The translations under genes and the position numbers were made by a program. A DNA stretch of 64,000 nt from an uncultured Acidimicrobiia bacterium. GTDB taxonomy: Bacteria > Actinomycetota > Acidimicrobiia > Acidimicrobiales > AC-14. The stretch is from assembly GCA_963836205.1 (NCBI GenBank), contig CAWIIV010000023.1, positions 1 through 64,000 on the forward strand, in the 5' to 3' direction. Every line of letters begins with the position of its first letter. Position 1 is the stretch's first letter. The notes beneath the pieces were generated by a model, which searched no databases, had not been told where the DNA came from, and was given only the letters and a program-made list of their open reading frames with translations. Below, in pieces: positions 14,554-34,982 of this stretch.

Positions 14554-16268
14554 ATGACCGGCTCGGTTCAGGCGGTCTTCGCCCGCACCCTGGTGGACGA
14601 GTGGGCTCGGGGCGGCGTCGAGGTCGCCGCCGTCTCCCCCGGCTCCCGGTCGACCCCCCTCGCCCTCGCCCTCCTCTCCGACCCCCGCATCCGGGTGGAG
14701 GTCTTCCTCGACGAACGGTCGGCCGCCTTCTTCGCGGTGGGCGTCGGACGGGCCTCGGGCCGGCCCGCGGTCGTGCTGTGCACGTCGGGGACGGCGGCGG
14801 CCAATTTCCACCCCGCGGTCCTGGAGGCGTTGCACGGACGGGTGCCCCTGGTGGTCGCCACCGCCGACCGTCCCCCCGAGCTGCGGGACACCGGCGCCGG
14901 CCAGGCCACCGACCAGATCAAGCTCTACGGCGCATCGGTGCGGTGGTTCTGCGAGGTGGGGACGGCCGAGGTCGACGACCCCACCTACTGGCGGTCGGTG
15001 GCGGCCCGGTCGGTGGCGGAGGCATCGGGGCCACCGGCCGGTCCCGTCCACCTCAACCTCGCCTTCCGGGAACCGCTCGTGCCCGCGGGGGAGAACGTGG
15101 CCGTCGGTGAGGGCCGTCCGGGGAGACGCCCGTGGGTGACGACCGCGGTCGGCCCGGCCCTCCCCGACGACGACGAGGTGGACGGGCTGGCGGCGGCGGT
15201 GGCGGCCGCGCCCCGGGGCCTGCTGGTGGCGGGGTGGGGGGCGGGCGTGTCGGCCGACGTGGTCGGGCGCTTCGCGGCCGCCGCCGGGTGGCCCGTGCTC
15301 GCCGACGCCATCTCAGGCGTGCGCACCGGCCCCCACGCCGTCTCCACCTACGACGCCCTGTTGCGGGTGCCGGCGGTGGCCGAGCGCCTTCGGCCCGACC
15401 TGGTGGTCCACGTGGGGGCGCCCCTCACCGGCAAGGTGGCGACCGCGTGGCTCGACGCGGGCGTCCCCCGGGTCGTCGTCGACCCCGAGCGGGCCTGGCT
15501 CGACCCCCACCGGGGGGCGTCGGAGCGGGTGGTGGCCGATCCCGCCGCCCTCCTCGACGCCCTCGCCGACCGGTTGGAGGGGTACGGGTCGGCGAGTCGC
15601 TCGTCGTGGCTGACGGCGTGGCTCGACGCCGAGGCCACCGCCCGGGCCGCCATCGACGGGTGGCTCGACACCGACGACACGCCGTCCGAAGCCCGGGTAG
15701 CCCGTGACCTGGTCGACTGCCTGCCGGACGGGGCCTCCTTGGTGGTGGGTTCGAGCATGCCGGTCCGCGATGTCGAGTCCTTCGCCCGGCCCCGCGGCGG
15801 GGTGCGGTTCCACTCCAACCGGGGCGTCAACGGCATCGACGGGTTCGTGTCCACCGTGCTCGGGGTGGCCGCGGGGGGCGACAGGCCCGTGGTGGCGTTG
15901 TGCGGCGACCTCACGTTCCTCCACGACGGGGGTGGGCTGCTGGAGGCTGCGGGTCGCGACCTCGACGCGGTCCTGGTGGTGGTCGACAACCGGGGCGGCG
16001 GGATCTTCTCCTTCCTGCCCCAGGCCGCACTCCCCTCGGCCCAGTTCGAGACCCTGTGGGGGACGCCGCACCACCTCGACCTGGCGGCCTTGTGCGGCGT
16101 CCACGGCATCCCCGCCATTCGGGTCGAGCGGGCGTCGGACCTGGCTCCGGCGGTGACGGCGGCTATCGAGGCGGTGGTGTGCGGGTTGTGATCGTGACCA
16201 CCGACCGGGAGGCCAACGTCGCCCACCACCGGGCCGCCCACAAGGCGGTGGCCGAGGCCCTGGCGTGA
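14554..16268 (+). CDS. menD: SEPHCHC synthase; frameshift near 16175 (probable error)
   Basis: SPGSRSTPL, DERSAAF, CTSGTAAAN, NRGVNGIDG, GDLTFLHD, GGGIFSFLP; C-terminus GGVRVVIVTTDRE in the shifted frame. Confidence 0.93.
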
Positions 16269-16850
16269 TCGGATCGGTCCGGCGCCATCCGATGGTGACG
16301 GCGGTCGTGGTCACCTACCTGGTGGCGGTGGGTGCGTACGGCCTGGTCAACCGGTCCCGCCTGGCCGTTCCCTACATCGTGATCGTGGCCGTCGCCTTCG
16401 TGGGCCTGGCCGTGGCCGACGACCGCTTCCGCTTCCACCGGGTGGTGCTGGTGGGTCTGACCCTCTGGGGCGCCGGACACCTGTGCGGTGGCATCGTCGA
16501 GCTCGACGGTGGCGACCGCATCCTCTACAACGCCGTCGTCGCCCGCTGGTTCCACTTCGACAACGTCGTCCACTTCGTCGGCTTCGGCACCGCCGGCCTC
16601 GCCTGCTGGCACGCCCTGAGGGTCCGATGGATCGGTGACGTCGAGGTGGGTCCGGTGGCTACCGTCGTCGTTCGTGGCGTTGCTGGGCTGCGGGGTCGGT
16701 GCGGTCAACGAGGTGCTCGAGTTCGCCTACACGCTGGCCGTGGCTGACAGCCAGGTCGGCGGCTACCAGAACACCGGCCGCGATCTGGTCGCCAACCTCC
16801 TCGGCGGCCTGACGGCGGGCGTGTACGCATGTGGTGGCGCGGAGCACGTC
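16265..16850 (+). CDS. Membrane protein (DUF2238-like), frameshift near 16640, 3' end uncertain
   Basis: H...GG...Y, FDNVVHFVG, then GAVNEVLEF...GGYQNTGRDLVAN in another frame. Confidence 0.6.
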
Positions 16851-16957
16851 GCCCACCCGATCCTGCATGACGCGAAGGTCATGTCGGACCGACCCGCCTT
16901 GCACCTGGGGGCCCGCCGCAAGGCCTCAAACGGCCGAACGCCAAACGCAACGAGATG

Positions 16958-19900
16958 TCACGAGTCGGAGGGACCCCCACCATCCGCGGCACCCCGCTGC
17001 TCGATCCGACGCATCACGGTGATGAGGACCGCCGTATCGGCGGAGTCGAGACCTTCCCATTCGACATCGGCGGCGCCGTCGGCGAGCTGGCGTAGGCGGG
17101 CGGCGAGAGCCGTCCAGCCTTTCTCGGCACCCTCGTCGAGGCTGGCTGCGACCTCGGTGGCGACTTCCTCGAGCGCCGGCGCGAGGGGGGTGCCGGCCCG
17201 GCGGGCGGCCGCGATCGCGGCCACTGCGTCTAGTAGGGGGGCCCAATCTTCGGGGGCGGGATCGGGCTCGACCTCGCCGGCAAGGGCGGCCAGGGCCCGG
17301 GATACGATGGTGGTGTCGATCGGATCGAGGCCCTCGCCGAGGAGTGAGGGGTCACGTTCGCCGTCGGAGACGCGGCTCAGGCGCTCGGCCAGTGACCTCC
17401 AGTCGGGCTGCTCGGACCGTCGTGCGAGCTCGGCGTCGAGATGGGCCCGGGCGTAGGTGTTGCCGGAACTGGCGGCGACAAGCAGGGCCAGAGTGGGTTC
17501 CCAGCCGGCAATCTCGAAGGCGTAGAGCGCCTCGACCGGCAGTTGCCGGGCGTCATCGATGACGGTGGCCAGGACATGGGTGCCGTCGCCCCCAAGAGCC
17601 TCGACCAGGGCTCGGAATTGGACCCCATCGACAACCTCGACAGCCAGGCACAGCTCGTCGAAGCTGGCCGGGGCGCTGACGCCGGAAGCGAGCTGGCGGG
17701 CGACAACGGCCACATCGGAGGGATAGTCGCCGTGGCCGGTGAGCAGGCTCAGCATTGTCGAGGCCAAACGGTGGCCGAGGCTCGCCCCCTCCCCGCCCCC
17801 TCGATCCAGGTAGTTGGCCAGGTTGTAGTGCGAGACGGCCACCTCCCTGGGCCCGGGCCGCAGGTACTTGTAGCGCAGAGCCCGACGCTCGAGGACGACG
17901 GCCTGGGGGCCGAAGCCCTGCTTGTCGGCGACATCGGCTTGGGCGCAGAGGCACTGTCCGAGGAGGTCGAAGGCGTCGTGGCGCTCGAACACAACCCGGC
18001 AGTCGGCGAGCACAGCGCTCGTCTCGGCAATGCGGCCGAGACGCAGGAGGGGTCCGTAAGCGTTGAAGAGGGCGCTGGCCCGTTCGAGCTCCGGAGCGTC
18101 GCGGTCCTGTTCGCTCGCGACGACACGCTCGAGCCAGGCCAGTGCCTCCTGCCAGCGGCCGAGGTCGGCGGCGGCTTGCCGTGCTGTGTCGAACAGCATC
18201 TCCCGCACGTTCCAGGGGTTGACCGCCTCGTTGTCGGTGGGCGGATCGGGCAGCTCCCCGAGGTGCTCGGCCGACCGGGTGGCCTCGTCCAGAACCCGCT
18301 CGTATTGGCCGAGGGCGCGCAGGACCTGGAGACGCTTGATCTGGTTGAGAAGCTGGGTCCAGGGGCCGAGGCCGGCGGCCCGAATGTGGCCCGTAGTACG
18401 ATCGATCACGTCCAGGGTCTCCCGATATCGGCCCTGCGCCATGAGCAGGTTTGCCAAGTCGCTAGAGGTGCCCGCCGCCAGTTGGTGGCGGCCGGCGGCG
18501 GCGGCTTCGTCGTCCGCCTCGACCCGGCGCATGAGTCTTTCTGCCTCGGTCGGGTCGATATCCCGGAGGGCCCTGGCGAGTACACCCAGCGCGAGTAGCT
18601 CGGCCTCGGTGCCGACGGCCTTGGTGGCGATGTGGCGCAGCTGGCGGGCGCCGTCCGCCCGTCCCGCCGGGGAGGGATCCCGTAGGAGCACCTCCTCCAG
18701 CGCGGCCTGGGCCCTCATCCAGTCCCGCAGCCGGATGAAGTAGATGGCACCTTGGCGGGCGGCGTGGATGACCCATCCGGTGGTGGGCTGGCCTGCGGCC
18801 TCGTCGGCGAGGGCCTGTTGCAGGGTCGCTCCCCAGGCTGCGGCCAGCTCGGTGTCGACGGCGGCGGCGACCTCCTCAGGGGTGGCGGCAGCCACCGTCT
18901 CGGCCACGAGGGGGTGGATGGTGAAGGAACTGCCGCCGGGGTCGGCCTCGACTAGGGCCGCCGCCATCAGGGCCTGGAGCACGGGGCCGGGCTCGGGGGC
19001 GGGCTCGGGCCGTCCCAGGCGCCGCCACAGGTCCGCCCAGTTGACCCGAACCGTCTCAGGATCGCGATCGGCGGCGTCGGCCCGGACCAGGAACTGGAGC
19101 ATCAGCACGGCTGCCTCGTCGAGGCCGGCCAGGGCCTGGTTGGCCCAGGAGCCGACCAGGGCCACGTAGCCCGCCACCTTGTCGACCCCACGCCCGGCGG
19201 CGGTCAGGAAGGCCGAGGGGTCGACGCCCTGTTGTTGCCACTGCTGGGCCGCATCGGCCAGCATGGCATCCAGCACCGGTCCGGTGCCGACCTGGGCGTT
19301 GGCCAGCTCCAGCAGCTTGGGGTGCCCGCCGGTGGCCTCCAGCACCGCCCGCACCAGGGCCGGGCCGCTGTCCCGGGTGGCCACCGTCTCCCCCTTCAGC
19401 AGGCGGGACAGGTTGGGCAGCTGGCGGGCCAGCAGCACCGCCTCGTGGGGGCCGAGGGCGTGGACGGCCTCCACCGCCAGCCCGTCGAGGCCGGTCGGGG
19501 GCCGGCGGGAGGTGAGCACCACCCGGCCCCGGCCCGGGTGGGTCACCAGGGCGGTGACGAGGGCCTTCCATCTCGGGTCGAGCCAGGACCCCTGGGCCGA
19601 CAGCAGCGACTCGACGTTGTCGAGCACCACCAGCACCGAGGTGTTCTCCATGGCCTCGCTGATCTGCTCGGCCAGGGCTTCGATCTGGTCGAGCTTGTCG
19701 GCCTTACCGGCCAGGGGCAGCCTCAGGGCGGTATCGAGGCGCCCGGCCAGCTTGCCCAGGGCGTCGGCCGCCTCCTTGTCGGTGCCGGTGCCCTCGTTGG
19801 GGCAGCGGCACCACACCAGCTCGGCGAAGTTGCCCCGCTGGCCGTAGGCCAGCTCCAGCGCACAGGCGGTCTTGCCCGCTCCGGCCATGCCGTGCAGCAC

Positions 19901-21172
19901 CACCCCCCGCTGGGGGCTGTGGCGGGCCAGGGCGGCGTTGGCCCGGGTCATGACCGCCACCCGGCCCACGAAGCGGGCCGGCTCGGCGTCGAAGCCGGCC
20001 ATCTTGAGGTCGGTCTGGGGGGTCCCCTCCGGCGGGGCCAGGTGCAGGGCGCCCGCCGCGGGGCCGAAGACGGCGGGGGTGAAGGCGGCCAGCGCGGGGG
20101 CGGCCGCGGTGGGGGGGAACGTGACTGAGCGCTCAAGGGCCCAGGCGGTGGCGGCGGCGGTGTCCTTGCCCTTGTCCCACAGGCCCCGGAACAGGGCCAG
20201 GCCGAAGGCGATGGCGAAGTCGTCGACCACCGGGTAGCGCATGGCCACCACCGTGGTCTCGGCCCTGTCCATCACCTCCAGGGCCAGGCCGTGGCTGGCC
20301 CCCACCGTGGGCTCGGGGGCCAGGTCGTGGGCCTCGACGTCCATGTCCTTGAGGGTCTGGGCCACCACGAAGGCGCCGCTGGAGCAGGCCGACAGGCTCA
20401 CCAGCTTGAGCCGGTGGCGGGCCTTGCGCAGCCACTTCACCAGCTCGGCGGTGTCGACCACGGTGGGCTTGCCGGCCTCGTCCTCCAGCATCAGGCGGCC
20501 GGGCTCGCCGTGGCCGGCGAAGTGGACCACGTCCCAGCCCTCGTCCTCGTCGAGGGCCTCCCGCAGGCGCTCGGCGGTGGCCCCGTATTGCAGCACCCGC
20601 AGGTCCAGGGCCCGGGGTGTGCCCCCGCCCGCCACTTCGGCCACCAGCTCGCCCAGGCCCTTGCGCTCCCGGCGCAGGTCGAGCAGGGACTGGCCGGCTG
20701 GGACGGAGAACACGGCCAGGACCCGCAGGCGCTCGCCGACGGGGTCCTTCGCCACCACCTCCTGGCCCTCGAAGGAGCCGGCGAAGGCCACCCCGTGGGT
20801 GACCAGGTACTCGCCCCCCACCCGGGCCACCCCCAGGGGCAGGCCCAGCAGCCACGGCGCGGAGGCGGGGACCAGCACCGACACCGCCACCGGCGCCCGA
20901 TCGGCCAGGATCGCGGCCAGCGGGCCCAGCACCTTGTCGGCCGTCCAGTCCCCCACCTGGGCCACCAGCTTCTCCTCCGAGCCCAGCTGGTCGGCGGGGT
21001 CGAGGTGGGTGGACAGGCCGGTGGGCAGGTCGGCCAGGGCCTGCCACTCCCACGAGGACACCTGGACGCCCACCTGATGGTGGGCGATCAACTTGTCGCC
21101 AGGACCGAGGAGCCGCCACAGCCACGAGCCCCGCCCCCCCACCTCGCTCGCCACCAGCCGCAAACCCGCCAT
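16958..21172 (-). CDS. CHAT (caspase-like) - STAND/NB-ARC-like NTPase - TPR protein, copy 1 (1404 aa)
   Basis: Catalytic VVHFAGHG and LSACSSG; Walker A HGMAGAGKT, Walker B LVVLDNVE, LTSRR, GGHPKLL; TPR-like helices. Confidence 0.9.
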   Translation of the reverse strand: MAGLRLVASEVGGRGSWLWRLLGPGDKLIAHHQVGVQVSSWEWQALADLPTGLSTHLDPADQLGSEEKLVAQVGDWTADKVLGPLAAILADRAPVAVSVLVPASAPWLLGLPLGVARVGGEYLVTHGVAFAGSFEGQEVVAKDPVGERLRVLAVFSVPAGQSLLDLRRERKGLGELVAEVAGGGTPRALDLRVLQYGATAERLREALDEDEGWDVVHFAGHGEPGRLMLEDEAGKPTVVDTAELVKWLRKARHRLKLVSLSACSSGAFVVAQTLKDMDVEAHDLAPEPTVGASHGLALEVMDRAETTVVAMRYPVVDDFAIAFGLALFRGLWDKGKDTAAATAWALERSVTFPPTAAAPALAAFTPAVFGPAAGALHLAPPEGTPQTDLKMAGFDAEPARFVGRVAVMTRANAALARHSPQRGVVLHGMAGAGKTACALELAYGQRGNFAELVWCRCPNEGTGTDKEAADALGKLAGRLDTALRLPLAGKADKLDQIEALAEQISEAMENTSVLVVLDNVESLLSAQGSWLDPRWKALVTALVTHPGRGRVVLTSRRPPTGLDGLAVEAVHALGPHEAVLLARQLPNLSRLLKGETVATRDSGPALVRAVLEATGGHPKLLELANAQVGTGPVLDAMLADAAQQWQQQGVDPSAFLTAAGRGVDKVAGYVALVGSWANQALAGLDEAAVLMLQFLVRADAADRDPETVRVNWADLWRRLGRPEPAPEPGPVLQALMAAALVEADPGGSSFTIHPLVAETVAAATPEEVAAAVDTELAAAWGATLQQALADEAAGQPTTGWVIHAARQGAIYFIRLRDWMRAQAALEEVLLRDPSPAGRADGARQLRHIATKAVGTEAELLALGVLARALRDIDPTEAERLMRRVEADDEAAAAGRHQLAAGTSSDLANLLMAQGRYRETLDVIDRTTGHIRAAGLGPWTQLLNQIKRLQVLRALGQYERVLDEATRSAEHLGELPDPPTDNEAVNPWNVREMLFDTARQAAADLGRWQEALAWLERVVASEQDRDAPELERASALFNAYGPLLRLGRIAETSAVLADCRVVFERHDAFDLLGQCLCAQADVADKQGFGPQAVVLERRALRYKYLRPGPREVAVSHYNLANYLDRGGGEGASLGHRLASTMLSLLTGHGDYPSDVAVVARQLASGVSAPASFDELCLAVEVVDGVQFRALVEALGGDGTHVLATVIDDARQLPVEALYAFEIAGWEPTLALLVAASSGNTYARAHLDAELARRSEQPDWRSLAERLSRVSDGERDPSLLGEGLDPIDTTIVSRALAALAGEVEPDPAPEDWAPLLDAVAAIAAARRAGTPLAPALEEVATEVAASLDEGAEKGWTALAARLRQLADGAADVEWEGLDSADTAVLITVMRRIEQRGAADGGGPSDS

Positions 21173-23126
21173 TGGTAGTCAGGGGCGCGTTGCCGGCAAG
21201 GCCAGCACGTTTCCCCATCCCCCTTTCAATCCGTACGTGCGGTTTTCCCGCATACGGCTTTCCGACGATCTTCTGGACATGGTTACGACGCCTTCGGGTA
21301 GCGAATGGTGCCCATGAGCTGATGCAGGCCCTGGCCGTGGAACCAGGTGCGGGTCCAGCAGTCTGCCTGGCCTGCCCGTAGGTTGCGGCCCCGCTTCTTG
21401 ATGAGCAAGCGCTTGAGCCGCCACACGACGTGTCGGTCGAGGGAGACGAACTTATTCGCCGCGTTGCCGGTGCGGAAGTAGTTGCCCCACCCCCGCAGGA
21501 ACAGGTTGAGGTCGTAGATCACGTCCTCCAACTCCATGCCGACCCGGTTCCGGCCGGTGAGGGCCTTGACCCGCTGTCGTGCCCGCTTCATCGACCGCTG
21601 CGACGGCCAGCGGTGGAGGTAGTAGCGGATGACCCGCTGCTGTTCCCACAACCGGCCCGACATGCGGGCGTGAAGATGACAACCCAGGAAGTCGAAGCCC
21701 TCCTTGCCCTCCCGGAGGTCGACCACACGGGTCTTGTCCGGGTGCAGGCTCAGGCCGAGATCACCCAGCAGGGCCGCCGCCCTGGCCTGGGCCGTCTCGG
21801 CCTGGCTGCGGGTCGTGCACAGCACCACGAAGTCGTCCGCGTAACGGACGAGCTCGCCGGTGCCGGACTCGGCCCAGGACCGGTCGAAGGCGTGCAGGTA
21901 GATGTTGGCCAGCAGCGGGGAGATGACCCCGCCCTGGGGCGTGCCCGTGACCGTCTCGGAGCGCACCCCCTCGACCAGCACCCCGGCACGCAGCCACTGG
22001 CGGATGAGCTTGAGCACCCGCCGGTCCGACACACGCTCGCCGACCAGTGACAGCAGCCTGTCGTGGTCGATCTGGCCGAAGAAGTCGCGGATGTCGGCCT
22101 CGAAGACGAACTGCCGTCCTCGGGGGAAGGACACCCGGATGGCTTCCAGGGCGTCGGTGGCCGACCGCTTCGGGCGGAACCCGAAGCTCTGGGGCAGGAA
22201 ATCGGCCTCGAAGATGGGTTCGAGGACGATCTTGGCTGCCGCCTGGCACACCCGGTCGCGCACGGTGGGGATGCCCAGGGGCCGCATCCGGCCGTCGGGC
22301 TTGGGGATCTCCACCCGCCGAACAGGCGACGGGCGGTAGGTGCCTGCACGGAGGTCACGGGAAAGCTCGTCGAGCACGCGCCCGACCCCGTAGTCCTCCA
22401 CCGCCTCCAGGGTCAGTCGATCGACCCCGGCGGCGCCACGATTGGCTCGCACCCGCTCCCACGCCGTCCACAGCACGTCACTGCGGTGGATTCGGTCGAA
22501 CAGGGCGTGGAAGCGGCGACCCGGAGACTGCTTGGCCGCAGCCCATAGCCGGTTCTGGAGTTTCGCACGTTGTCGGTGGGCGGCTGCCCGCCGGGGGAGT
22601 TGGGCCGGGCGTTCCCGGCCATGCCCTGGCGCTTACTTCCGTCTCCGGCGTGACCGAAGTCGGGGCCCTTCCCTCCCGCCGGGTTCATCCCGGCGATCAG
22701 CGGTACTACGACCCCGTCGGACTCCCGCTGCGCTCCGCTCGATTTCACCACTGGCTTATACGAGCGGTCTTTGCTGACGAGGCTGCGCAGACGGGTCTCT
22801 CCTGTTCCGAACCTGACCGTGCGTACGTGCCGCTCCCCGTACCCCGAGGGGACCCGACCAGGGGCGTGTCCGGAACGCCAGTCGGTCGGACGTGGCCTTC
22901 GCCGTGACATGAGCGGCTCGGCTCCCCCGTTGTGCGTTTGACGAGGCTGCAGGACTCGCGCCTGGTGGCACTACGGCCCGCACGCTTGCTCCCTCCAAAG
23001 AGGCTCTTGACGCCCCGCTCAGCCCGCCGCCTCTCGGCGACGAACCGGGGCCTGCTACCGGGCTCTCCGGCGATTACCCGGGCGGGACTCGCACCCGCTG
23101 GTCTGGTCCAGTTCTCAGGACGCAAC
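21171..23126 (-). mobile_element. Group II intron inserted in the start codon of CHAT copy 1
   Basis: 5' end (G)TTGCG at 23126; domain V AAGCCGTATGCGGGAAAACCGCACGTACGGATT (21228-21260); 3' end ...CTACCAAT; internal RT ORF; removal restores a sequence matching the uninterrupted copy-2 start. Confidence 0.92.
21283..22622 (-). CDS. ltrA: Group II intron reverse transcriptase/maturase (no En domain); 1-nt deletion near 22562
   Basis: [55 protein letters not shown], domain X GWGNYF. Confidence 0.93.
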
Positions 23127-23172
23127 ATGGGCAGGACGATACCGGGGCCGGGGAACGAGCGCCGGGCATCTT

Positions 23173-24111
23173 TTAGCCCAGGGTGCCCAGCTCCGCGGTC
23201 AGGGTGAAACGGATCGGCTGACAGCCCGACACCGGCAGCACGACCAGGTCCCACGGGCCGGCGGTGCGCTCGCCCGCGATCAAAAGGGACTCGACCCGGT
23301 GCAGGTCACATCCGCCGCCGAGGCGTGAACCCAACGTCTCGATGCCCAGTGGCGTCATGGAGACGACGACGGGGACCGGCTCGCTGAGCGCAGGCTTTGG
23401 AACCGGCTTGGGCTCAACCTTGCCCCCGATGCCGTAGAGGGTAAGCGCCAGGCCTGTGGCGGCAGCCATGCCCCCCAACACCACGACCACGATGCCTCGG
23501 TTGAATTGCGTGCGGGCTCTCTCGAATCGTGCGACCCGGAGAAGGCCGTCGAGGGCGCGCTCGTGGCTGCGGAGGGTGCCCGACACCGCTTGGTGGGCGC
23601 GCTCGTTCCTCGCCCGAGACTCCGGGCTTTGGGACTGGGCGGCGGCGTTGGCGGCGGTCCTGATCGCGGCGAGACGGAGGTTGGCGATGGCGCTACGAAG
23701 GCTGTCCGGATCGGAGATCCCATCCGGGAGGAAGTCGCCGGGATGGTCGGCGAGGCCGCTCTCAAGCCGGCCAAGGCCGAAGAACGTCTGGCGGATCGGA
23801 CCCTCGCGTCGAGCCCGCAGTTGGTAAGCGAAGACCGCCCGGGGGACGAGGACGCTGGCCGTCGACGCGAACACGCCGGCCACCCCGGCGAGGGCGATCG
23901 CGCCGCCGGCGATCACATAGGCCAGCCTCCCGGGGGCGATGTCGCCGATACCAGCCAGGGGCGCGGTGCCGGCGATGACGGCCCCCACCGCCCCGAAGGC
24001 CACCACCAACCACTTGGCGACGTCTCGGTACCGGTCGACCGCCTCCGACCACTGGTCGGCACCCGTTCCCTCCGGGGCCGCGTCCGAGGGAGGAACAGGA
24101 GCGGTGGTCAC
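23173..24111 (-). CDS. Three-TM membrane protein, Pycsar-effector-like topology
   Basis: GTG overlapping the upstream TGA; TM1 (KWLVVAFGAVGAVIAG), TM2 ending VLVPR, helical linker, TM3 (GIVVVVLGGMAAATGLALTLYG). Confidence 0.7.
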   Translation of the reverse strand: MTTAPVPPSDAAPEGTGADQWSEAVDRYRDVAKWLVVAFGAVGAVIAGTAPLAGIGDIAPGRLAYVIAGGAIALAGVAGVFASTASVLVPRAVFAYQLRARREGPIRQTFFGLGRLESGLADHPGDFLPDGISDPDSLRSAIANLRLAAIRTAANAAAQSQSPESRARNERAHQAVSGTLRSHERALDGLLRVARFERARTQFNRGIVVVVLGGMAAATGLALTLYGIGGKVEPKPVPKPALSEPVPVVVSMTPLGIETLGSRLGGGCDLHRVESLLIAGERTAGPWDLVVLPVSGCQPIRFTLTAELGTLG

Positions 24112-24374
24112 ATCCGGACTACCCCGGGCCCTCCGCCACCAGGCGGATCCCCGGGATCTTCTGCGTCGGGGAAGTCCCCGGGCTCGAGCCACTCTCCGAG
24201 CACCGGATGGAAGATCCACGAGCCTCCGGTGGCAGACACGACCACTTCGTAAGGCGAAGGGCTCGCCGGAAACCATGCGCTGCGGCCCTCCGACCACGTC
24301 CACGAGCGGCCGGTGTTTTCGACGACATCGCCCTCGACCGAGCCAGGTGCCGACGGAGGACGGCGCTCAGCCAT
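24108..24374 (-). CDS. 88-aa Trp-repeat microprotein
   Basis: ATG overlaps the CHAT copy 2 stop and its TGA overlaps the next GTG; two internal VV..TG.SW.W/F......W repeats. Confidence 0.6.
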   Translation of the reverse strand: MAERRPPSAPGSVEGDVVENTGRSWTWSEGRSAWFPASPSPYEVVVSATGGSWIFHPVLGEWLEPGDFPDAEDPGDPPGGGGPGVVRM

Positions 24375-27300
24375 TGGACTCGATTCGACACACCACAGTG
24401 GCGAGGATCGCCGTGTCGATGGGGTCAAGGCCCTCCCAGTCAACGTCGGCGACGCCGTCGGCGAGCAGCCGCAGGCGGACGGCCAGGATCATTCCTTGGG
24501 CAGCAGCCTCGTCGAGGACGGCTCCGACCTCGGAGGCGGTGTCGTCGAGTTCGGGAGTCAGGGGGGTGCCGGCCCGGCGGGCGGTGCCGACGCGAGCCAC
24601 TGCCTCGAGGACGGGCCGCAATCCCTCGGGGGCAGGGTCGACGTCGACCTCCCCGGCAAGCGCGGCCAGCGCCCGGGAGATGACGGCGGTGTCGATGGGG
24701 TCGAGGCCCTCGACGAGGAGAGAGGGGTCACGTTCCCCGCCGGCGACGCGGCCCAGGCGTTCGGCCAGTGACGTCCAGTCGGGCTGCTCGGACCGTCGTG
24801 CGAGCTCGGCTCGAGGTGGGCCCGGGCGTGGGCGTTGCCGGCCCCGGCGGCGAGCACTAGTGCAAGGGTAGGTTCCCAGGCGGTGATCGAGGAGGCGTAG
24901 AGCGCATCCTCCGGCAAGTGCTGGGCCTCGTCGACCACGGCGGCCAGTACCTGATCGCCGCCACCACCGAGGGAATCCACCAGGGCCCGGAAACGGACGC
25001 CATCGACCTCCTCGACAGCGACGCACAGCTCGTCGAAGCTGGCCGGGGCAACGGCACCCGAGGCGAGCTGGCGACCGATAGCCGCCACGTCGGAGGGATA
25101 GTCGCCGTCGCCGGTGAGCAGGCTCAGCATGGTCGCCGCCAGGCGGTGGACGACGCTAGCCGACCCGCCCCCGGGGCCGCGAGCCACATAGTTGGCCAGG
25201 TTGTAGTGCGATACGGCCACTTCTCTCGGGTTGGGTCGCAAGTATTTGTAGCGCAGAGCCCGGCATTCGAGGGCGACGGCCTGGGGGCCGAAGCCCTGGC
25301 TTTGGGCGACATCGGCTTGGGCACTCAGGCAGACTCCGAGGAGGTCGAAGACGTCGTGGCGCTCATACACAGCCCGGCAGGCGGCGAGCACCTCGCTCGC
25401 TTCGGCGATGCGGCCGAGGCGGAGGAGGGGACCGTACGCGTTGAACCGGGTACCCGCCCGCTCTAGCTCAGGGGCGGCGCGGTTCTGCTTGCTGACAACG
25501 ATCCGATCGAGCCAAGCCAGCGCCTCCGGCCAGCGGCGGAGGTCGGTGGCGGTTCGCCGGGCGGTGTCGAACAGCCTCTCTCGCACGCTCCAGGGGTTTA
25601 CCGCCTCGTCGTCGCCGGAGGGGTCGGGCAGCTCCGCCAGGCGCTCGGCCAACCTGCTGGCTTCAGCCAAGACCTCCTCCCGCTGTCCGAGCACTCCCAG
25701 GACTTGGAGCCGCCTGGTCTGGTCCATTACCTGGGTCCACGGGCCGAGTCCGGCGGCCCGGGTATGGCCCGCCTGCCGCTCGATCACATCAAGGGCCTCC
25801 CGGTTCCGGCCCTGGGCCCGGAGAAGGTTGGCCAACCTGGCAGCGGTGCCTGACGCCACTCGGTGGCGACCGCTGGTGGCGGCCTCCGCCTCCACCCGGC
25901 GTAGCAGCGTCTCCGCCTCGGCCGGGTCGGTGTCGATGATGGCTCCGGCGAGCACCCCCAGCGCCAACAGCTCGGCGTCGGTGCCGGCAGCCTCGGCGGC
26001 GATGTGGCGCAGCTGGCGGGCGGCATCGGCCCGGTGGGCGGGGGAGGGATCCCGTCCTAACGCCAGCTCCAGCACGGCCTGCGCCAGCATCCAGTCCTGC
26101 AGCCGGATGAAGTAGGTGGCACCCTGACGGGCGGCGTGGATTACCCATCCAGTCATGGGCTGGCCGGCGGCCTCGTCGGCGAGCGCCCGTCGCAGGGTCG
26201 CATCCCAGGCTGCGGCCAGCTCGGTGTCGGCGGCGGCGGCGACCTCCTCAGGGGTGGCGGCAGCCACCGTCTCGGCCACGAGGGGGTGGATGGTGAAGGA
26301 ACTGCCGCCGGGGTCGGCCTCGACTAGGGCCGCCGCCATCAGGGCCTGGAGCACGGGGCCGGGCTCGGGGGCGGGCTCGGGCCGTCCCAGGCGCCGCCAC
26401 AGGTCCGCCCAGTTGACCCGAACCGTCTCAGGATCGCGATCGGCGGCGTCGGCCCGGACCAGGAACTGGAGCATCAGCACGGCTGCCTCGTCGAGGCCGG
26501 CCAGGGCCTGGTTGGCCCAGGAGCCGACCAGGGCCACGTAGCCCGCCACCTTGTCGACCCCACGCCCGGCGGCGGTCAGGAAGGCCGAGGGGTCGACGCC
26601 CTGTTGTTGCCACTGCTGGGCCGCATCGGCCAGCATGGCATCCAGCACCGGTCCGGTGCCGACCTGGGCGTTGGCCAGCTCCAGCAGCTTGGGGTGCCCG
26701 CCGGTGGCCTCCAGCACCGCCCGCACCAGGGCCGGGCCGCTGTCCCGGGTGGCCACCGTCTCCCCCTTCAGCAGGCGGGACAGGTTGGGCAGCTGGCGGG
26801 CCAGCAGCACCGCCTCGTGGGGGCCGAGGGCGTGGACGGCCTCCACCGCCAGCCCGTCGAGGCCGGTCGGGGGCCGGCGGGAGGTGAGCACCACCCGGCC
26901 CCGGCCCGGGTGGGTCACCAGGGCGGTGACGAGGGCCTTCCATCTCGGGTCGAGCCAGGACCCCTGGGCCGACAGCAGCGACTCGACGTTGTCGAGCACC
27001 ACCAGCACCGAGGTGTTCTCCATGGCCTCGCTGATCTGCTCGGCCAGGGCTTCGATCTGGTCGAGCTTGTCGGCCTTACCGGCCAGGGGCAGCCTCAGGG
27101 CGGTATCGAGGCGCCCGGCCAGCTTGCCCAGGGCGTCGGCCGCCTCCTTGTCGGTGCCGGTGCCCTCGTTGGGGCAGCGGCACCACACCAGCTCGGCGAA
27201 GTTGCCCCGCTGGCCGTAGGCCAGCTCCAGCGCACAGGCGGTCTTGCCCGCTCCGGCCATGCCGTGCAGCACCACCCCCCGCTGGGGGCTGTGGCGGGCC

Positions 27301-28544
27301 AGGGCGGCGTTGGCCCGGGTCATGACCGCCACCCGGCCCACGAAGCGGGCCGGCTCGGCGTCGAAGCCGGCCATCTTGAGGTCGGTCTGGGGGGTCCCCT
27401 CCGGCGGGGCCAGGTGCAGGGCGCCCGCCGCGGGGCCGAAGACGGCGGGGGTGAAGGCGGCCAGCGCGGGGGCGGCCGCGGTGGGGGGGAACGTGACTGA
27501 GCGCTCAAGGGCCCAGGCGGTGGCGGCGGCGGTGTCCTTGCCCTTGTCCCACAGGCCCCGGAACAGGGCCAGGCCGAAGGCGATGGCGAAGTCGTCGACC
27601 ACCGGGTAGCGCATGGCCACCACCGTGGTCTCGGCCCTGTCCATCACCTCCAGGGCCAGGCCGTGGCTGGCCCCCACCGTGGGCTCGGGGGCCAGGTCGT
27701 GGGCCTCGACGTCCATGTCCTTGAGGGTCTGGGCCACCACGAAGGCGCCGCTGGAGCAGGCCGACAGGCTCACCAGCTTGAGCCGGTGGCGGGCCTTGCG
27801 CAGCCACTTCACCAGCTCGGCGGTGTCGACCACGGTGGGCTTGCCGGCCTCGTCCTCCAGCATCAGGCGGCCGGGCTCGCCGTGGCCGGCGAAGTGGACC
27901 ACGTCCCAGCCCTCGTCCTCGTCGAGGGCCTCCCGCAGGCGCTCGGCGGTGGCCCCGTATTGCAGCACCCGCAGGTCCAGGGCCCGGGGTGTGCCCCCGC
28001 CCGCCACTTCGGCCACCAGCTCGCCCAGGCCCTTGCGCTCCCGGCGCAGGTCGAGCAGGGACTGGCCGGCTGGGACGGAGAACACGGCCAGGACCCGCAG
28101 GCGCTCGCCGACGGGGTCCTTCGCCACCACCTCCTGGCCCTCGAAGGAGCAGGCGAAGGCCACCCCGTGGGTGACCAGGTACTCGCCCCCCACCCGGGCC
28201 ACCCCCAGGGGCAGGCCCAGCAGCCACGGCGCCGACGCGGGGACCTGCACCGACACCGCCACCGGCGCCCGGTCGGCCAGGATCGGGGCCAGCGGGCCCA
28301 GCACGTGCTCGGCCGTCCAGTCCCCCACCTGGGCCACCAGCTTCTCCTCCGAGCCCAGCCGGTCGGCGGGGTCGAGGTGGGTGGACAGGCCGGTGGGCAG
28401 GTCGATCAGGGCCTGCCACTCCCAGGATTGGACGTCGACCGCCACCTGGTGGTGGGCGATCAACTTGTCGCCGGGACCGAGGAGGCGCCACAGCCACGAG
28501 CCCGGGCCCCCCACCTCGCTCGCCACCAGCCGCAACCCCGCCAT
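24367..28544 (-). CDS. CHAT-STAND-TPR protein, copy 2; 1-nt deletion near 24810 relative to copy 1
   Basis: Same motifs as copy 1 at offset 7372; the C-terminus continues in ORF 24367-25026. Confidence 0.88.
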
Positions 28545-28646
28545 AGCAACGGACGATACCGGGGCCGGAGAACAAGCGCCGGGCATCTCTCTAGCCCAGG
28601 GTGCCCATCGCCCGTAACGGCTTCCCCGACCGGGAGACTCTGACCC

Positions 28647-29369
28647 GTGCGCCAACTCCACCCCGAGGTGATCGACGACGTCGACCCGGTGGACGTGTAC
28701 GGCGACCTGCCGCGGGGCGTGCGGCTGAACATGATCGCCAGCGTCGACGGGGCCACGTCGGTCGAGGGGCTCTCGGGTGCCTTGGGCGGTGCGCCCGACC
28801 GGCGGGTGTTCGCCGCGTTGCGGTCGCTGGCCGACGTGATCCTCGTCGCCGCCGGCACCATGCGGGCCGAGGGCTACGGCCCGGCCCGGTTGCCGGAGAC
28901 GGTGCAGGCGGCCCGCCGGGAGCGGGGGCAGGCGCCGGTGCCGCCGATCGCTGTCGTCTCCCGGGCGTGTGCGCTCGACTGGGAGTCGCCGTTCTTCGCC
29001 GACGCCGCCGCGGCAGCCCGGCCGATCGTCGTGACGGTGGCCGACGCGCCCGCCGCCAACCGGGCCGCGGCCGCGGCGGTGGCCGAGGTGGTGGTCGCGG
29101 GCACCGGCAGCGTCGACCTGACCGCGGCCGTCGGTGCGCTCCGGGAGCGAGGGTTGCGGTCGGTCCTGGCCGAGGGCGGTCCGTCGCTCAACGGGCAACT
29201 GGCCGCGGCCGGCCTTCTCGACGAGCTGTGTCTCACGATGTCGCCGAAGATGGTCGGCGGCGACTCCCGCCGCATCCTCACCGGGCCCTACCTGCCCCAG
29301 CCGGTACCGATGACCCTCCGATCAGTGTGCGAGGACGACGGCTTCCTCTTCCTCCGCTACCGCCCATGA
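28647..29369 (+). CDS. RibD C-terminal-like pyrimidine reductase family protein
   Basis: NMIASVDG, LRSLADVILVAAGTMRAEGY, LAEGGPSLNG, LDELCLT. Confidence 0.88.
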   Translation: MRQLHPEVIDDVDPVDVYGDLPRGVRLNMIASVDGATSVEGLSGALGGAPDRRVFAALRSLADVILVAAGTMRAEGYGPARLPETVQAARRERGQAPVPPIAVVSRACALDWESPFFADAAAAARPIVVTVADAPAANRAAAAAVAEVVVAGTGSVDLTAAVGALRERGLRSVLAEGGPSLNGQLAAAGLLDELCLTMSPKMVGGDSRRILTGPYLPQPVPMTLRSVCEDDGFLFLRYRP

Positions 29370-30556
29370 CCCTCTCGTTCGGAAACCTGCTGGTGGTGGC
29401 GGTGATCGCGGTGAGCGCGCCCCTGCTCGTGGGCCTGGTCCCGCAGCTGCGGGTGCCGGCGGTTGTGCTGGAGATCGTGGCCGGGATCGTGGTCGGCCCG
29501 GCGGGCCTCGGGTGGGTCGAGGTCGACCTCCCTGTCGAGGTGCTGGCGCTGATCGGGTTGGCGTTCCTCCTCTTCCTGGCCGGGCTCGAGATCGACGTGG
29601 CCAAGCTGCGGGGTCCGATCCTCAAGACCGCGGGAACGGGCTTCGGGTTGACGCTCGCCCTCGGAGTGGCAGTGGGAGTGGCGTTCGCTGCGGTCGGGTG
29701 GGTGAGGTCGCCCCTGCTCATTGCCGTCGCCCTGTCGGCCACGTCGCTGGGGTTGGTGGTCCCGGTCCTGAAGGACGCGGGCCAGGCCGACCAGCCGGTC
29801 GGGCAACTGACGATCGCGGGGGCGTCGGTGGCCGACTTCGCCGCGGTCGTCCTGCTGTCGCTGCTGTTCTCCGAGAGCGAGGCCGGCGTCGGCGGGAAGC
29901 TGGTCCTCCTCGGACTCTTCGTCGTGCTGGCGGTGGTGACCGTGGTCGCCCTGGCCCGGCTCGAGCGGATCGCCCGCCTCGACATGGTTCTCGTTCGGCT
30001 GCAGGACACGACCGCCGAGATCCGGGTGCGAATCGCGGTGCTGCTCCTAATCGGCTTCGTGGCCCTGGCCGGACGGCTGGGGCTGGAGACGATCCTGGGG
30101 GCGTTCCTGGCCGGGGCGATCCTGAACATGGTCGACCGGGACACCGTCACCCACCCCAATTTCCACCTCAAGCTGGAGGCGATCGGCTACGGATTCGTGG
30201 TCCCCGTGTTCTTCGTGGCCAGCGGGTTGCGGTTCGACCTGGAGGCATTGCTCGACTCCCCGTCGGCTATCGCCCGGGTGCCGGTGTTCCTCCTGGGCCT
30301 CCTGATCGTCCGGGGCGTGCCCGCCGCGCTGTATGCGAAGACGGTGGGACGACGAAAGGCGGTGGCTGCGGGATTGCTCCAGGCAACCTCGCTGCCATTC
30401 CTCGTGACCGCCACCGAGATCGGGGTCGCGCTGGGCGAGATCAGACCGGTGACGGGAGCCGCGCTGGTCTCGGCGGGCTTGTTGTCTGTGGTGATCTTCC
30501 CGTTGGTGGCGGTGACGTTGCTCCGGGAATCGCCCGAGGCGGCCAGCGCGTCCTAA
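29366..30556 (+). CDS. Cation:proton antiporter (CPA2)
   Basis: Many TMs, FLAGLEID, ATSLG, LETILGAFLAG, PVFFVASG. Confidence 0.9.
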   Translation: MTLSFGNLLVVAVIAVSAPLLVGLVPQLRVPAVVLEIVAGIVVGPAGLGWVEVDLPVEVLALIGLAFLLFLAGLEIDVAKLRGPILKTAGTGFGLTLALGVAVGVAFAAVGWVRSPLLIAVALSATSLGLVVPVLKDAGQADQPVGQLTIAGASVADFAAVVLLSLLFSESEAGVGGKLVLLGLFVVLAVVTVVALARLERIARLDMVLVRLQDTTAEIRVRIAVLLLIGFVALAGRLGLETILGAFLAGAILNMVDRDTVTHPNFHLKLEAIGYGFVVPVFFVASGLRFDLEALLDSPSAIARVPVFLLGLLIVRGVPAALYAKTVGRRKAVAAGLLQATSLPFLVTATEIGVALGEIRPVTGAALVSAGLLSVVIFPLVAVTLLRESPEAASAS

Positions 30557-33447: not shown

Positions 33448-34154
33448 ACCGCGACGCCCGACGCCCGGGTGCCGGTGAGGAGTTGGGCGATGCCGCCCGA
33501 CAGCGCCCGCCGGGACGCCCTGGTGAACCCGGCCGCGGCCATCATCGTCAGCATCTCGGGGGGCGGCGGCAGGTAGGCCACCGACTGCGGCAGGTACCGG
33601 TAGGCGGCCCGGTCGGAGAGCAGCCCGCCCACAAAAGGCACCACCTTGCCGAAGTACAGCCCGTGCCCCGCCCGCAGCACCCGGTTGGCCGGCACCGCCA
33701 CTTCCAGCAACGCCACCCGGCCGCCGGGGCGCAGCACCCGGGCGCACTCGGCGAAGAACAGGTCGAGCCCGAGGACGTTGCGGAGGGCGAAGCCGCACAC
33801 GATCCCGTCGACCGACCCGTCGGCCATCGACAGGGCCAGGGCGTCGCCCCGTACCAGCGGCGCCGACGTGCGGGCCGCGGCCAGCATCCCCGCCGACCGG
33901 TCGACGCCGACCGGCCGGTAGCCGGCGTCGTCCAGCACCCGGCACAGGTCGCCCGTCCCGCAGGCCAGGTCGAGCACGATCGCGCCCGGCGGCAGGGCCA
34001 GCGAGCGCACCGTCTTCTTTCGCCAGCCGACGTCCATGCGCATGGTGAGGATGCGGTTGAGGGCGTCGTAGCGGGGGGCGATGGCGTCGAACATGTCGTC
34101 GACCGCCCGCACCTTCTCGTCGCCCTGGGGCAGCCCACTCCGGCGGCGGGTCAC
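33444..34154 (-). CDS. menG: Demethylmenaquinone methyltransferase (in frame with the upstream MerR ORF)
   Basis: MFDAIAPRYD, LDLACGTGD, FALRNV, RVLRPGG, AYRYLPQS. Confidence 0.9.
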   Translation of the reverse strand: MTRRRSGLPQGDEKVRAVDDMFDAIAPRYDALNRILTMRMDVGWRKKTVRSLALPPGAIVLDLACGTGDLCRVLDDAGYRPVGVDRSAGMLAAARTSAPLVRGDALALSMADGSVDGIVCGFALRNVLGLDLFFAECARVLRPGGRVALLEVAVPANRVLRAGHGLYFGKVVPFVGGLLSDRAAYRYLPQSVAYLPPPPEMLTMMAAAGFTRASRRALSGGIAQLLTGTRASGVAV

Positions 34155-34928: not shown

Positions 34929-34982
34929 AGTGATCATTCTAGGAGCGATCGCTCCCGTGGTCAGCCCGGGAAGAATGGGGGC

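Follow-up and report, generated by a model that had tools for sequence, protein, structure and literature searches.

A putative protease-gated membrane effector module with two NLR-like sensors in a variable actinobacterial island

In a high-GC actinobacterium, an island carries two genes for large proteins that pair a caspase-fold CHAT protease with a STAND ATPase, together with an 88-aa open reading frame and a gene for a membrane protein. Do these genes form a cell-death module and, if so, is it one that has already been described? We addressed both questions in the 64,000-nt stretch of DNA that holds the island (the window).

Results

Organization of the locus

On the minus strand, the order is CHAT2, the 88-aa ORF (here micro), a 3-TM protein gene (here TM), a group II intron and CHAT1, as an earlier note on this DNA had read it. 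The menaquinone-gene surroundings that it described are also there, with MenB, MenD and a UbiE/MenG-type methyltransferase in the flanks. The features are:

16958–21172, minus strand: CHAT1, 1404 aa, CHAT protease, STAND ATPase and helical repeat C-terminus (intact ORF, GC3 0.90)
18859–20778, minus strand: identical 1,920-bp tract, CHAT1 copy (longest exact run)
about 21168–23133, minus strand: group II intron with RT/maturase ORF at 21283–22476 (TIGR04416, Rfam RF02003)
23173–24111, minus strand: 312-aa 3-TM protein (GC3 0.85, homologs, AF2)
24108–24374, minus strand: Trp-rich microprotein of 88 aa, all-beta, its tail disordered beyond an FPD motif (L005 ortholog, AF2)
24367–24810, minus strand: ancestral-frame C-terminal tail of CHAT2, ~148 codons (homology to the CHAT1 tail)
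24558–28544, minus strand: CHAT2 as encoded, 1328 aa, its last 84 codons out of frame (alignment with CHAT1)
26231–28150, minus strand: identical 1,920-bp tract, CHAT2 copy (longest exact run)
28545–28606, minus strand: remnant of a TM-gene 3′ end and TM-to-CHAT spacer, upstream of CHAT2 (57-nt match)
28647–29369, plus strand: pyrimidine reductase family (RibD_C) gene, divergent from CHAT2 (Pfam, NCBIfam)
16828–29363, no strand: variable island, ~12.5 kb (blastn synteny with three same-genus genomes)

We propose that CHAT2, micro, TM and CHAT1 once formed a single minus-strand operon, with the TM stop ~45 nt from the CHAT1 ATG once the intron is subtracted. Stop/start overlaps had been claimed for the first three genes. 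That of micro and TM stands (4 nt, GTGA); CHAT2 as encoded stops at 24558, which leaves 184 nt to the micro ATG, and its 8-nt overlap with the micro start (ATGGCTGA, 24367–24374) exists in the ancestral frame only. The CHAT2 start also needs correction, as the codon at 28610, where it had been placed, is CGA; the true start is the ATG at 28544, to which the CHAT1 start is homologous. Neither a micro nor a TM gene was found downstream of CHAT1.

The intron that had been placed between TM and CHAT1 is identified by its RT/maturase (TIGR04416, 415 bits against a cut-off of 300) and by a ribozyme match at 22966–23100 (Rfam RF02003, group-II-D1D4-4, 91 bits against 49); Domain V/VI gave no Rfam call at the gathering threshold. 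Its own genome holds eight matches to it, five at ~100% identity, two at 90% and one partial. At its 3′ end it touches or runs into the CHAT1 ATG, which, from a comparison of the flanks, the intron rebuilds. The element is young and multi-copy, and presumably splices.

Two large proteins with a shared core

By their sequences, both large proteins are CHAT protease–STAND ATPase fusions with a predicted helical C-terminus. The CHAT family PF12770 was missed in a Pfam scan of full-length CHAT1 and recovered only when the N-terminal 400 aa were scanned alone (residues 78–341, E 8.5e-12, 45.5 bits against a cut-off of 24). Both copies retain HFAGHG at residue 217 and LSACSSG at 260, in agreement with the earlier note, and we take their His and Cys, by analogy, to be the catalytic dyad. 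Both also carry a Walker A motif (GMAGAGKT, 428) and a Walker B-like motif (VLVVLDN, 513). In CHAT1 the Pfam STAND matches lie at 400–557, with AAA_16 above cut-off (36.2 against 32.6 bits) and NB-ARC (23.3 against 23.5) and nSTAND6 (23.3 against 27.7) just under it, and the NCBIfam family FxSxx_TPR matches partially at 399–776. Of the label CHAT-STAND-TPR given earlier, the first two parts hold on profiles and motifs; TPR matches are sub-threshold only (TPR_10 at 18.9 against 27.5 bits; TPR_2, TPR_7 and TPR_1 at E 0.017–0.049), and the TPR nature of the C-terminus is weakly detected.

The paralogs form a mosaic. Their longest exact run, 1,920 bp, extends from the CHAT catalytic region through the NTPase; codons 141–760 contain zero substitutions, and dS is ~0.1 before them and ~0.5 after. 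The C-terminal halves share 72% amino-acid identity (dS 0.48, dN/dS 0.37). The identical run suggests a gene-conversion or recombination tract, and an identical protease/NTPase core with differing C-termini would be the pattern expected of sensors that have different specificities and a common signalling core. The remnant upstream of CHAT2 comprises the last ~5 TM codons and stop, then the TM-to-CHAT spacer, and matches 23134–23190 (the TM end and the spacer upstream of the intron) over 57 nt at 93% identity. Together, the identical tract, the diverged C-terminal halves and this TM-gene tail point to a contracted tandem array.

Relative to CHAT1, CHAT2 has a 1-nt deletion at ~24811 (CTCGA-GCC against CTCGACGCC) that lies outside any homopolymer, and a search of its own genome returns it as two separate matches. 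The ancestral-frame tail is 69% identical to CHAT1 residues 1247–1397 and, although out of frame, keeps a dN/dS of 0.49, near that of the rest of the diverged half; the shift is therefore recent or an assembly error.

A rare island and a conserved trio

The island is missing at this site in all three congeners compared by blastn synteny. Window position 16827 is joined to 29364 across 720 bp in one (G003), 16241 to 29357 across ~300 bp in another (G002), and the third (G004) has ~2.2 kb of other DNA there. The RibD_C gene in the island (Pfam 3e-32; NCBIfam NF010663, 203 bits against a cut-off of 184) is found in none of five congeners searched. Of 400 other genomes of the order, one has a close CHAT N-domain, as a partial match only; close TM homologs are found in none of 60 relatives, and the three order-level TM matches among the 400 other genomes are all distant. 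By these comparisons, the island appears rare, strain-variable and mobile-looking. As both partners are rare, the adjacency of CHAT and TM is unlikely to be due to chance.

One further genome, L005, carries a CHAT-STAND gene, micro and TM in the same order, with identities of 42% (over 1217 aa), 40% and 42%, respectively. Its micro/TM overlap is again GTGA, and 39 nt separate the CHAT-STAND gene from micro. The CHAT-STAND ortholog matches PF12770 (E 8.6e-10), conserves the motifs as HFSGHG and LSACAS, and naturally lacks the C-terminal extension. The two genomes compared, the window's and L005, support reading the three genes as a compact module that has been conserved. Next to it, neither phage genes nor other defence genes were recognised in the window or in L005.

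The microprotein and the membrane protein

The 88-aa ORF could be no gene at all, just a frame left open by chance in GC-rich DNA: its codon bias is weak (GC3 just 0.72, with GC2 0.63), the protein database does not list it under the source genome and, like the TM protein, it has no match among Pfam and NCBIfam families or solved folds. We consider this highly improbable, as the L005 ortholog at the same position (40% identity over 65 aa, E 8e-20) retains each of the five Trp at its equivalent position, has a strong coding signal (GC3 0.88 against GC2 0.57) and carries a hypothetical-protein annotation in its own record; the stop/start coupling to TM is conserved as well. From these two sequences alone, AF2 confidently folds a beta core of six short strands and no helix (about residues 10–65, pLDDT ~85–91), followed by a tail (71–88, pLDDT below 50) rich in charged residues, Pro and Gly. 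A conserved W-x5-FPD motif adjoins the boundary between the two, and micro has no hydrophobic segment (maximum KD19 0.85). Small proteins of this type are very rare, as are close relatives of the TM protein.

The TM protein has three hydrophobic helices (35–53, 63–89 and 207–225), which confirms the earlier three-TM prediction in both sequence and AF2 model (pLDDT 92.1). The model is N-in, with a cytoplasmic helical domain that a continuous 66-residue helix (163–228) joins to TM3, and a C-terminal beta domain with an invariant Cys pair (C268 and C297); it has no fold match in the PDB. Nine close homologs share 48–58% identity, and the wider family has 954 representatives. The region after TM3 is variable, being the Cys-pair beta domain here, absent in L005 and a Zn-peptidase domain in P0015; it is probably extracytoplasmic, which suits a sensor or enzyme facing the envelope no less than a pore former. 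The linkage of TM and micro homologs to CHAT genes, on which the earlier proposal depended, holds in the close subfamily (the L005 trio) and fails in distant TM members: none of the four loci examined has CHAT-STAND neighbours, and no micro homolog is demonstrable upstream (hhalign probability 4% and 0.05%). The profile CyanoTRADDas_TM (PF20712) does not match the TM protein of the window; in two of its relatives, ~35 residues around TM3 score 22.5 and 17 bits against 24.3, a weak lead.

Complex prediction, proposed in the earlier note, gave a qualified answer for TM with micro. The score is 0.55, against 0.01 in the best control, and falls in a weak band: of 80 solved complexes, 58 reach the score mark, as do 2 of 110 mismatched pairs; those that do so with scores of 0.60 or below are just 7 of the 80 solved complexes, along with both mismatches. 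Runs share at least 83% of contacts with a partner pLDDT of at least 72, and the prediction lends weak support to an association.

Proposed mechanism and alternatives

We put at about even the case for a protease-gated membrane effector module with two NLR-like sensors, akin to the caspase-EACC1 and Pepco systems and with new accessory proteins. Its output is most likely protease-triggered cell suicide of the anti-phage type, a known logic built from undescribed parts. As no part of the locus has a PADLOC model, the defence role is argued from analogy and from the island context. We infer a chain of ligand sensing, substrate cleavage and membrane damage as follows. The diverged C-terminal helical repeats of each large protein would sense a ligand, upon which the STAND ATPase would oligomerise, bringing the N-terminal CHAT domains together and activating them. 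The protease would then cut micro, the cytoplasmic helical domain of the TM protein or both, all on the cytoplasmic side; the likeliest site would be the boundary between the Trp-rich beta core of micro and its disordered acidic, Pro- and Gly-rich tail, beside W-x5-FPD. The GTGA-coupled genes would yield micro and TM in a fixed ratio, and the pair would perturb the membrane, so that the infected cell is stopped or killed. A single shared effector pair would thus be fed by two sensors with different C-termini. Given the CHAT2 frameshift and the intron at the CHAT1 start, the locus may be impaired in this genome.

The signal might instead run in reverse: the TM protein, with its outward C-terminal domain, and micro would be an envelope sensor/ligand pair that activates CHAT-STAND, for example through freed micro binding the helical repeat domain, and the protease would kill through other cellular targets. 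Helical-repeat (TPR-like) domains are often peptide binders, and the variable segment after TM3, the long helix connecting the cytoplasmic domain with TM3 and a TM family found mainly without CHAT genes would all suit such a circuit. We judge it unlikely, since one micro/TM pair shared by two paralogous sensors with strongly diverged C-termini is easier to see as downstream, the L005 trio is kept though its TM protein lacks the outward domain, and adjacent small proteins are substrates in known STAND-protease systems, as the available part of Evans 2025 (10.1101/2025.11.14.688446) describes them. That the module acts outside phage defence, in regulated proteolysis or programmed death (stress, development or kin conflict) or in membrane-protein processing for the envelope, seems to us distinctly unlikely: the patchy island, the turnover of tandem paralogs and the diversification of sensors are typical of conflict systems and less so of housekeeping. 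The lack of a defence-database match and of recognised phage or defence neighbours does speak for such a role. In the portions available, the literature likewise associates STAND/caspase systems in general with a multicellular or colonial way of life and with conflict beyond phage (Kaur 2020, PMC7159879), and fusions of EACC1 modules to DnaK-like chaperones hint at stress roles (Evans 2025, 10.1101/2025.11.14.688446).

Decay would be compatible with any ancestral function. The locus would then be a defunct remnant of a tandem array, with CHAT2 a pseudogene and CHAT1 uncoupled by the intron; the non-homopolymer deletion in CHAT2, the TM-gene tail upstream of it, the missing micro and TM downstream of CHAT1 and the position of the intron at the CHAT1 start are what such a remnant would leave. 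We think this rather unlikely. The out-of-frame tail of CHAT2 matches the in-frame part in dN/dS, and truncated CHAT2 may still function because the L005 ortholog naturally lacks the same extension; CHAT1, micro and TM are intact, and the intron, presumably splicing, restores the ATG.

Comparison with known systems

With the whole proteins, PADLOC returned no families at E ≤ 0.01; for the L005 ortholog, and for CHAT1 cut into three pieces, it gave no relevant match at E ≤ 0.1. Searches of the full-text literature turned up no published description of the trio module, which supports the earlier note's view that the combination belongs to no named system. That note's comparison of the membrane effector to Pycsar is unsupported. 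No scanned island ORF has a pyrimidine cyclase or a cNMP-binding domain, and with cyclase and cNMP-binding effector both lacking we reject Pycsar membership.

In bacterial and fungal gasdermin systems, a CHAT or caspase-like protease, often NLR-fused, cleaves a membrane-permeabilising effector. By contrast, no gasdermin-like domain was found here, and the TM protein is an integral, three-helix protein with no PDB fold match. Csx29 (TPR-CHAT) of Craspase, in type III-E CRISPR, joins CHAT to helical repeats and cleaves a small partner once activated; this locus differs in having no CRISPR context, a STAND ATPase and other partners. Avs proteins share the tripartite plan of N-terminal effector, central STAND ATPase and C-terminal helical repeat sensor, and PADLOC gave no Avs or AVAST match for either the whole protein or its three pieces, so we do not assign the locus to them.

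The closest parallels come from systems in which, in the available portions of both sources, a small effector encoded next door is licensed through cleavage by a caspase or CHAT protease that is fused to a STAND sensor (Kaur 2020, PMC7159879; Evans 2025, 10.1101/2025.11.14.688446). As described there, EACC1-caspase systems are frequent in actinobacteria; EACC1 lies 5′ of the protease gene, has one conserved TM helix and is cut to free a membrane-active fragment (PMC7159879; 10.1101/2025.11.14.688446). The present locus shares with them an N-terminal caspase-superfamily protease on a multidomain sensor (including Avs/STAND) and a small non-enzymatic partner. Micro departs from EACC1 in these accounts in its position 3′ of the protease, in lacking a hydrophobic segment and in its coupling to a distinct 3-TM protein. 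Neither micro nor TM matches the EACC1 family, and the protease profile caspase_w_EACC1 reaches just 23 bits against a cut-off of 140; with no TM helix in micro and the gene order reversed, we reject membership. Pepco proteins, as far as the available text of Evans 2025 (10.1101/2025.11.14.688446) describes them, have an N-terminal amphipathic helix, self-assemble into 9–10-mer barrels and lose a charged, Pro-rich unstructured C-terminal tail to the fused protease. Like Pepco (Trypco1/2) as portrayed there, micro is a small all-beta protein (~100 aa for Pepco) of actinobacteria beside a protease-STAND sensor, and its disordered charged, Pro- and Gly-rich tail parallels the Pepco tail; unlike it, micro has no helix in its model, follows the protease in gene order and comes with a TM partner of its own. 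No Trypco profile in Pfam matches micro even at E up to 10, and on this ground and the absence of an N-terminal helix from the AF2 model we reject this membership too. The claim of an undescribed system thus holds for the accessory parts, which are new, and gives way for the logic: as cleavage of an effector by a protease-STAND protein is already published, the locus is a variant of a described logic and no new kind of system.

Locus architecture and genomic setting

The locus occupies the minus strand of the window at 16958-28544; the source genome comprises 4.05 Mb in 25 contigs and is 88.6% complete. The locus consists of five elements: CHAT1 and CHAT2, which are paralogous proteins with a CHAT protease, a STAND ATPase and a helical C-terminus; a tryptophan-rich microprotein (micro); a membrane protein (TM); and a group II intron.

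28544 (ATG start), minus strand: CHAT2, a large ORF whose start is backed by homology
24374-24108, minus strand: micro, an 88-aa ORF
24111-23173, minus strand: TM, a 312-aa ORF
21168-23133, minus strand: group II intron, between TM and CHAT1
21172-16958, minus strand: CHAT1, 1404 aa

The earlier note had taken CHAT2 to 28610, where the codon is CGA and not a start. The window has a G+C content of 70-78%, and codon-position G+C backs the coding status of CHAT1 (GC3 0.90), the intron-encoded RT (0.90) and TM (0.85), with weak backing for micro (0.72). A scan of 16000-30000 gave 0 promoter-like sites and one terminator-like site, which lies within the TM gene, below the level of shuffled sequences.

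The flanks carry MenB, MenD and a UbiE/MenG-type methyltransferase, in agreement with the menaquinone setting described previously. A segment of ~12.5 kb (16828-29363), here called the island, is missing from three same-genus genomes, each of which is collinear on both sides. The island also holds a pyrimidine reductase family (RibD_C) gene (28647-29369, plus strand), divergent from CHAT2, which was not found in the five congeners searched. Outside the island, a 576-aa frame at 33444-35174 (minus strand) joins a MerR-type HTH (residues 85-152) to a UbiE/MenG methyltransferase domain (356-569), and could represent either a gene fusion or a pair of genes read together from an upstream start.

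Two putative sensors with a shared core

The large proteins had been labelled STAND-TPR. The AAA_16 match supports the first half of this label, scoring 36.2 bits against a cut-off of 32.6 in the whole-protein scan, but the TPR matches lie near or below threshold. NB-ARC reached 23.3 bits against a cut-off of 23.5 in the same scan, nSTAND6 was likewise near or below threshold, and among NCBIfam models FxSxx_TPR matched in part across the NTPase region and the caspase match was weak. The Pfam CHAT domain (residues 78-341; E = 8.5e-12, 45.5 versus 24 bits) is detected only in a separate scan of the first 400 residues. Both proteins retain the His and Cys motifs reported for their CHAT domains, HFAGHG (217) and LSACSSG (260), and both carry GMAGAGKT (428) and VLVVLDN (513). 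A phmmer comparison of CHAT1 with PDB sequences gave no matches at E ≤ 0.01, and hence no sequence-related solved structure. No PADLOC model matched the whole large proteins or three pieces of CHAT1, in keeping with the suspicion of an undescribed system. The proteins end in a C-terminal extension (window 16958-17600, CHAT1 residues ~1190-1404) with a repeated EGLD(P/S)xDT-like motif; this region is frameshifted in CHAT2 and missing from the ortholog in L005, recorded as an Acidimicrobiales MAG.

CHAT1 and CHAT2 align over their full length at 90% DNA identity, which is unevenly spread. An exactly identical tract of 1,920 bp (18859-20778 = 26231-28150) spans codons 141-760, where the two genes do not differ by a single substitution; dS is 0.11 over the first 140 codons, and codons 801-1404 have a dS of 0.48, a dN/dS of 0.37 and 72% amino-acid identity. 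Judged from codon comparison, the protease-NTPase core bears the apparent mark of a recent gene-conversion or recombination event, whereas the C-terminal sensor halves have diverged. Assembly artefact is the less likely source of the 1,920-bp identity, because the contig spans both copies, each with unique flanks.

Near 24811, CHAT2 is one base short relative to CHAT1 (CTCGA-GCC versus CTCGACGCC), at a place without a homopolymer. As encoded, 84 codons run out of frame to a stop at 24558; the ancestral frame, which reaches 24367, shares 69% identity with the CHAT1 tail. The dN/dS of this ancestral-frame tail, 0.49, is similar to that of the remainder of the diverged half, which argues that the frameshift is recent or an error. 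In the soil-metagenome sequencing run X1, one low-depth contig (2.5x) has an additional base directly after 24810, where CHAT2 has its deletion, but this contig may come from a relative or from the paralog. The frame also bears on the overlapping stop and start codons ascribed to the first three genes: the GTGA overlap of micro and TM stands, but the CHAT2/micro ATG overlap, ATGGCTGA, exists in the ancestral frame only.

The 62 nt directly 5′ of the CHAT2 ATG correspond to the end of TM (its last five codons and stop) and the pre-intron spacer (57 nt, 93% identity), indicating that a TM gene formerly preceded CHAT2 as well. Downstream of CHAT1, no micro or TM remnant was found. Together, these observations argue that CHAT-micro-TM units once formed a tandem array here, which has since contracted.

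A young intron at the CHAT1 start codon

The intron noted within the cluster was confirmed by its RT/maturase, a group II equivalog (TIGR04416, 415 bits), and by Rfam D1-D4 matches at 22966-23100. It is young and multi-copy: the genome contains eight copies, of which five are ~100% identical, two are 90% identical and one is partial, and the congener G004 has one at 93% identity at a different site. Across the six full, near-identical copies compared (five from this genome and that of G004), all 5′ flanks end in C(A/G)T, and the element starts with GTTGCG and ends ...CTACCAAT, followed by GG. Here the junction falls on the CHAT1 ATG; the last bases of the intron rebuild this ATG, so that spliced and unspliced RNAs both have the start codon. 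Without the intron, ~45 nt would separate the TM stop from the CHAT1 ATG, so all four genes can form one transcription unit.

Insertion sites read C(A/G)T before the element and GG after it (window 21168-23133; retrieved loci L020-L023; L018 11983-13949). At no fewer than four of six sites, the junction ATG opens the following reading frame; examples are CHAT1 and frames whose N-termini resemble HIT-family and LmbE-like proteins. One copy lies within a histidine-kinase-like coding sequence. X1 matched a fraction of 0.07 of the sampled words, and no RNA run was among the matching runs. Its coverage of the island is chiefly the intron, with many variants (summed contig depth ~20 across window 21010-23114) and nearly nil elsewhere.

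The membrane protein and the microprotein

Hydrophobic segments at residues 35-53, 63-89 and 207-225 bear out the description of TM as a 3-TM membrane protein. Its AlphaFold2 model (65 sequences; pLDDT 92.1, pTM 0.74) has helices at 18-49, 63-88 and 135-157, a 66-residue helix at 163-228 and, after it, a beta domain at 242-311; two cysteines, C268 and C297, are invariant. Judged by how its charges are distributed, the protein probably has an N-in, C-out topology, with ~120 residues (about 89-205) forming a helical domain in the cytoplasm. A Foldseek search of the PDB returned nothing significant, the top match being to BAR-like helical bundles at E 0.12 with a TM-score of 0.26. The nine database homologs, at 48-58% identity, are all unnamed metagenome proteins, and the wider unannotated family counts 954 representatives at E ≤ 1e-3, of which 295 reach ≤ 1e-10 and 15 reach ≤ 1e-30. 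The part after TM3 is variable and is missing in L005 and several homologs. The 513-aa family member P0015 has a putative neutral Zn-metallopeptidase domain after TM3 (PF04228, E = 2.2e-34), and it and another representative, P0022, show sub-threshold matches to the conflict-system domain CyanoTRADDas_TM (PF20712).

No family profile matched micro, and a protein search with micro alone found no relatives. L005 encodes an ortholog (40% identity, E = 8e-20), annotated as a hypothetical protein, with five Trp at equivalent positions and strong coding bias; a profile of the two sequences retrieved the L005 copy as its sole match. The micro model has six short strands, with pLDDT ~85-91 across residues 10-65, and a disordered tail from residue 71, directly after a conserved W-x5-FPD. 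A fold search of the PDB gave no significant match (best E 0.15, choline-binding/glucan-binding hairpin repeats).

The predicted TM + micro complex scores 0.55, compared with 0.01 for the best control, and at least 83% of contacts agree between runs, with a partner pLDDT of at least 72. The mark was reached by 58/80 solved complexes and 2/110 mismatched pairs, and the band at or below 0.60 holds 7 of those solved complexes and both mismatches. The complex check proposed earlier thus lends the pairing weak support.

Linkage and distribution

In L005, the one further genome in which linkage of close homologs was checked, a 1228-aa CHAT-STAND protein (Pfam CHAT E = 8.6e-10), with 42% identity to CHAT1 across 1217 aa, comes first, the micro ortholog second and the TM ortholog third, the latter two sharing the GTGA overlap of the window. 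An EAL/HDOD-domain protein gene follows on the same strand (L005 10768-11991, plus), with no counterpart in the window.

Close TM relatives were present in 0/60 relatives, and two metagenome scans (A1, P0002), made for the contigs of the close TM homologs P0002-P0010, found no relative. Searching 400 further genomes of the class gave three weak TM matches. At order level, 400 further genomes yielded three distant TM matches and one partial match to the CHAT N-domain. By these searches, close relatives of both partners appear to be rare.

The linkage of TM homologs to CHAT genes divides: L005 has it, but a CHAT-STAND gene is missing from all four distant TM loci whose flanks were usable, their neighbours being unrelated or unknown. 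This contrast argues that the trio is a small subfamily, in which a commoner membrane module was recruited to a CHAT-STAND sensor. Small ORFs upstream of two distant TM homologs (L015 and L014) were rejected as micro relatives (hhalign probability 4% and 0.05%), their sole likeness to micro being an 8-residue PDSFPDQR match.

Interpretation and comparison with known systems

Protease-licensed death effectors on NLR-like sensors are a recent major logic in prokaryotic immunity, paralleling caspase-gasdermin signalling, and to our knowledge only a handful of effector families of this kind have been characterised. The locus adds a compact and conserved candidate whose two partner proteins are undescribed: a membrane protein confidently modelled with a novel fold, and a Trp-rich beta miniprotein. 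Its sensors are a natural pair with an identical signalling core and different C-termini, in which substrate mapping and swaps of specificity can be tested directly. With its tandem array, its gene conversion and its diverging sensors, the locus also shows NLR-cluster dynamics in a bacterium.

We give roughly even chances to the reading that we favour, in which the locus would be a protease-gated membrane effector. Rival explanations are that signalling runs in the reverse order, that the role is not directed at phage, or that the system has decayed in this genome. A bolder proposal, which we consider improbable, is that micro and TM form a previously unknown two-part membrane device coupled to NLR-like caspases. 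In one version, the device would be a pore or membrane-disrupting complex of a new class, licensed when a protease clips a soluble cap from an integral membrane protein. In the other, it would be an outside-in relay: a membrane protein facing the envelope would pass a peptide ligand to a cytoplasmic NLR, a bacterial counterpart of receptor-to-NLR signalling. Under either version, the wider TM family of 954 representatives would be an unrecognised family of membrane modules of conflict systems.

The analogy to a Pycsar-like membrane effector was rejected, as neither a cyclase nor a cNMP-binding domain was found in the island ORFs scanned. In line with the view that the combination has no name, no description of the trio was found in the full texts searched. 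Membership tests place micro outside both Pepco and EACC1. In Kaur 2020 (PMC7159879) and Evans 2025 (bioRxiv 10.1101/2025.11.14.688446), protease-effector modules are fused to STAND sensors, and the parts of this locus fit that logic. Micro resembles Pepco, as described in Evans 2025, in its size, beta content and disordered, charged, Pro-rich tail, and the dedicated 3-TM partner is new; it is this combination of fit, likeness and novelty that leads us to favour a protease-gated membrane effector.
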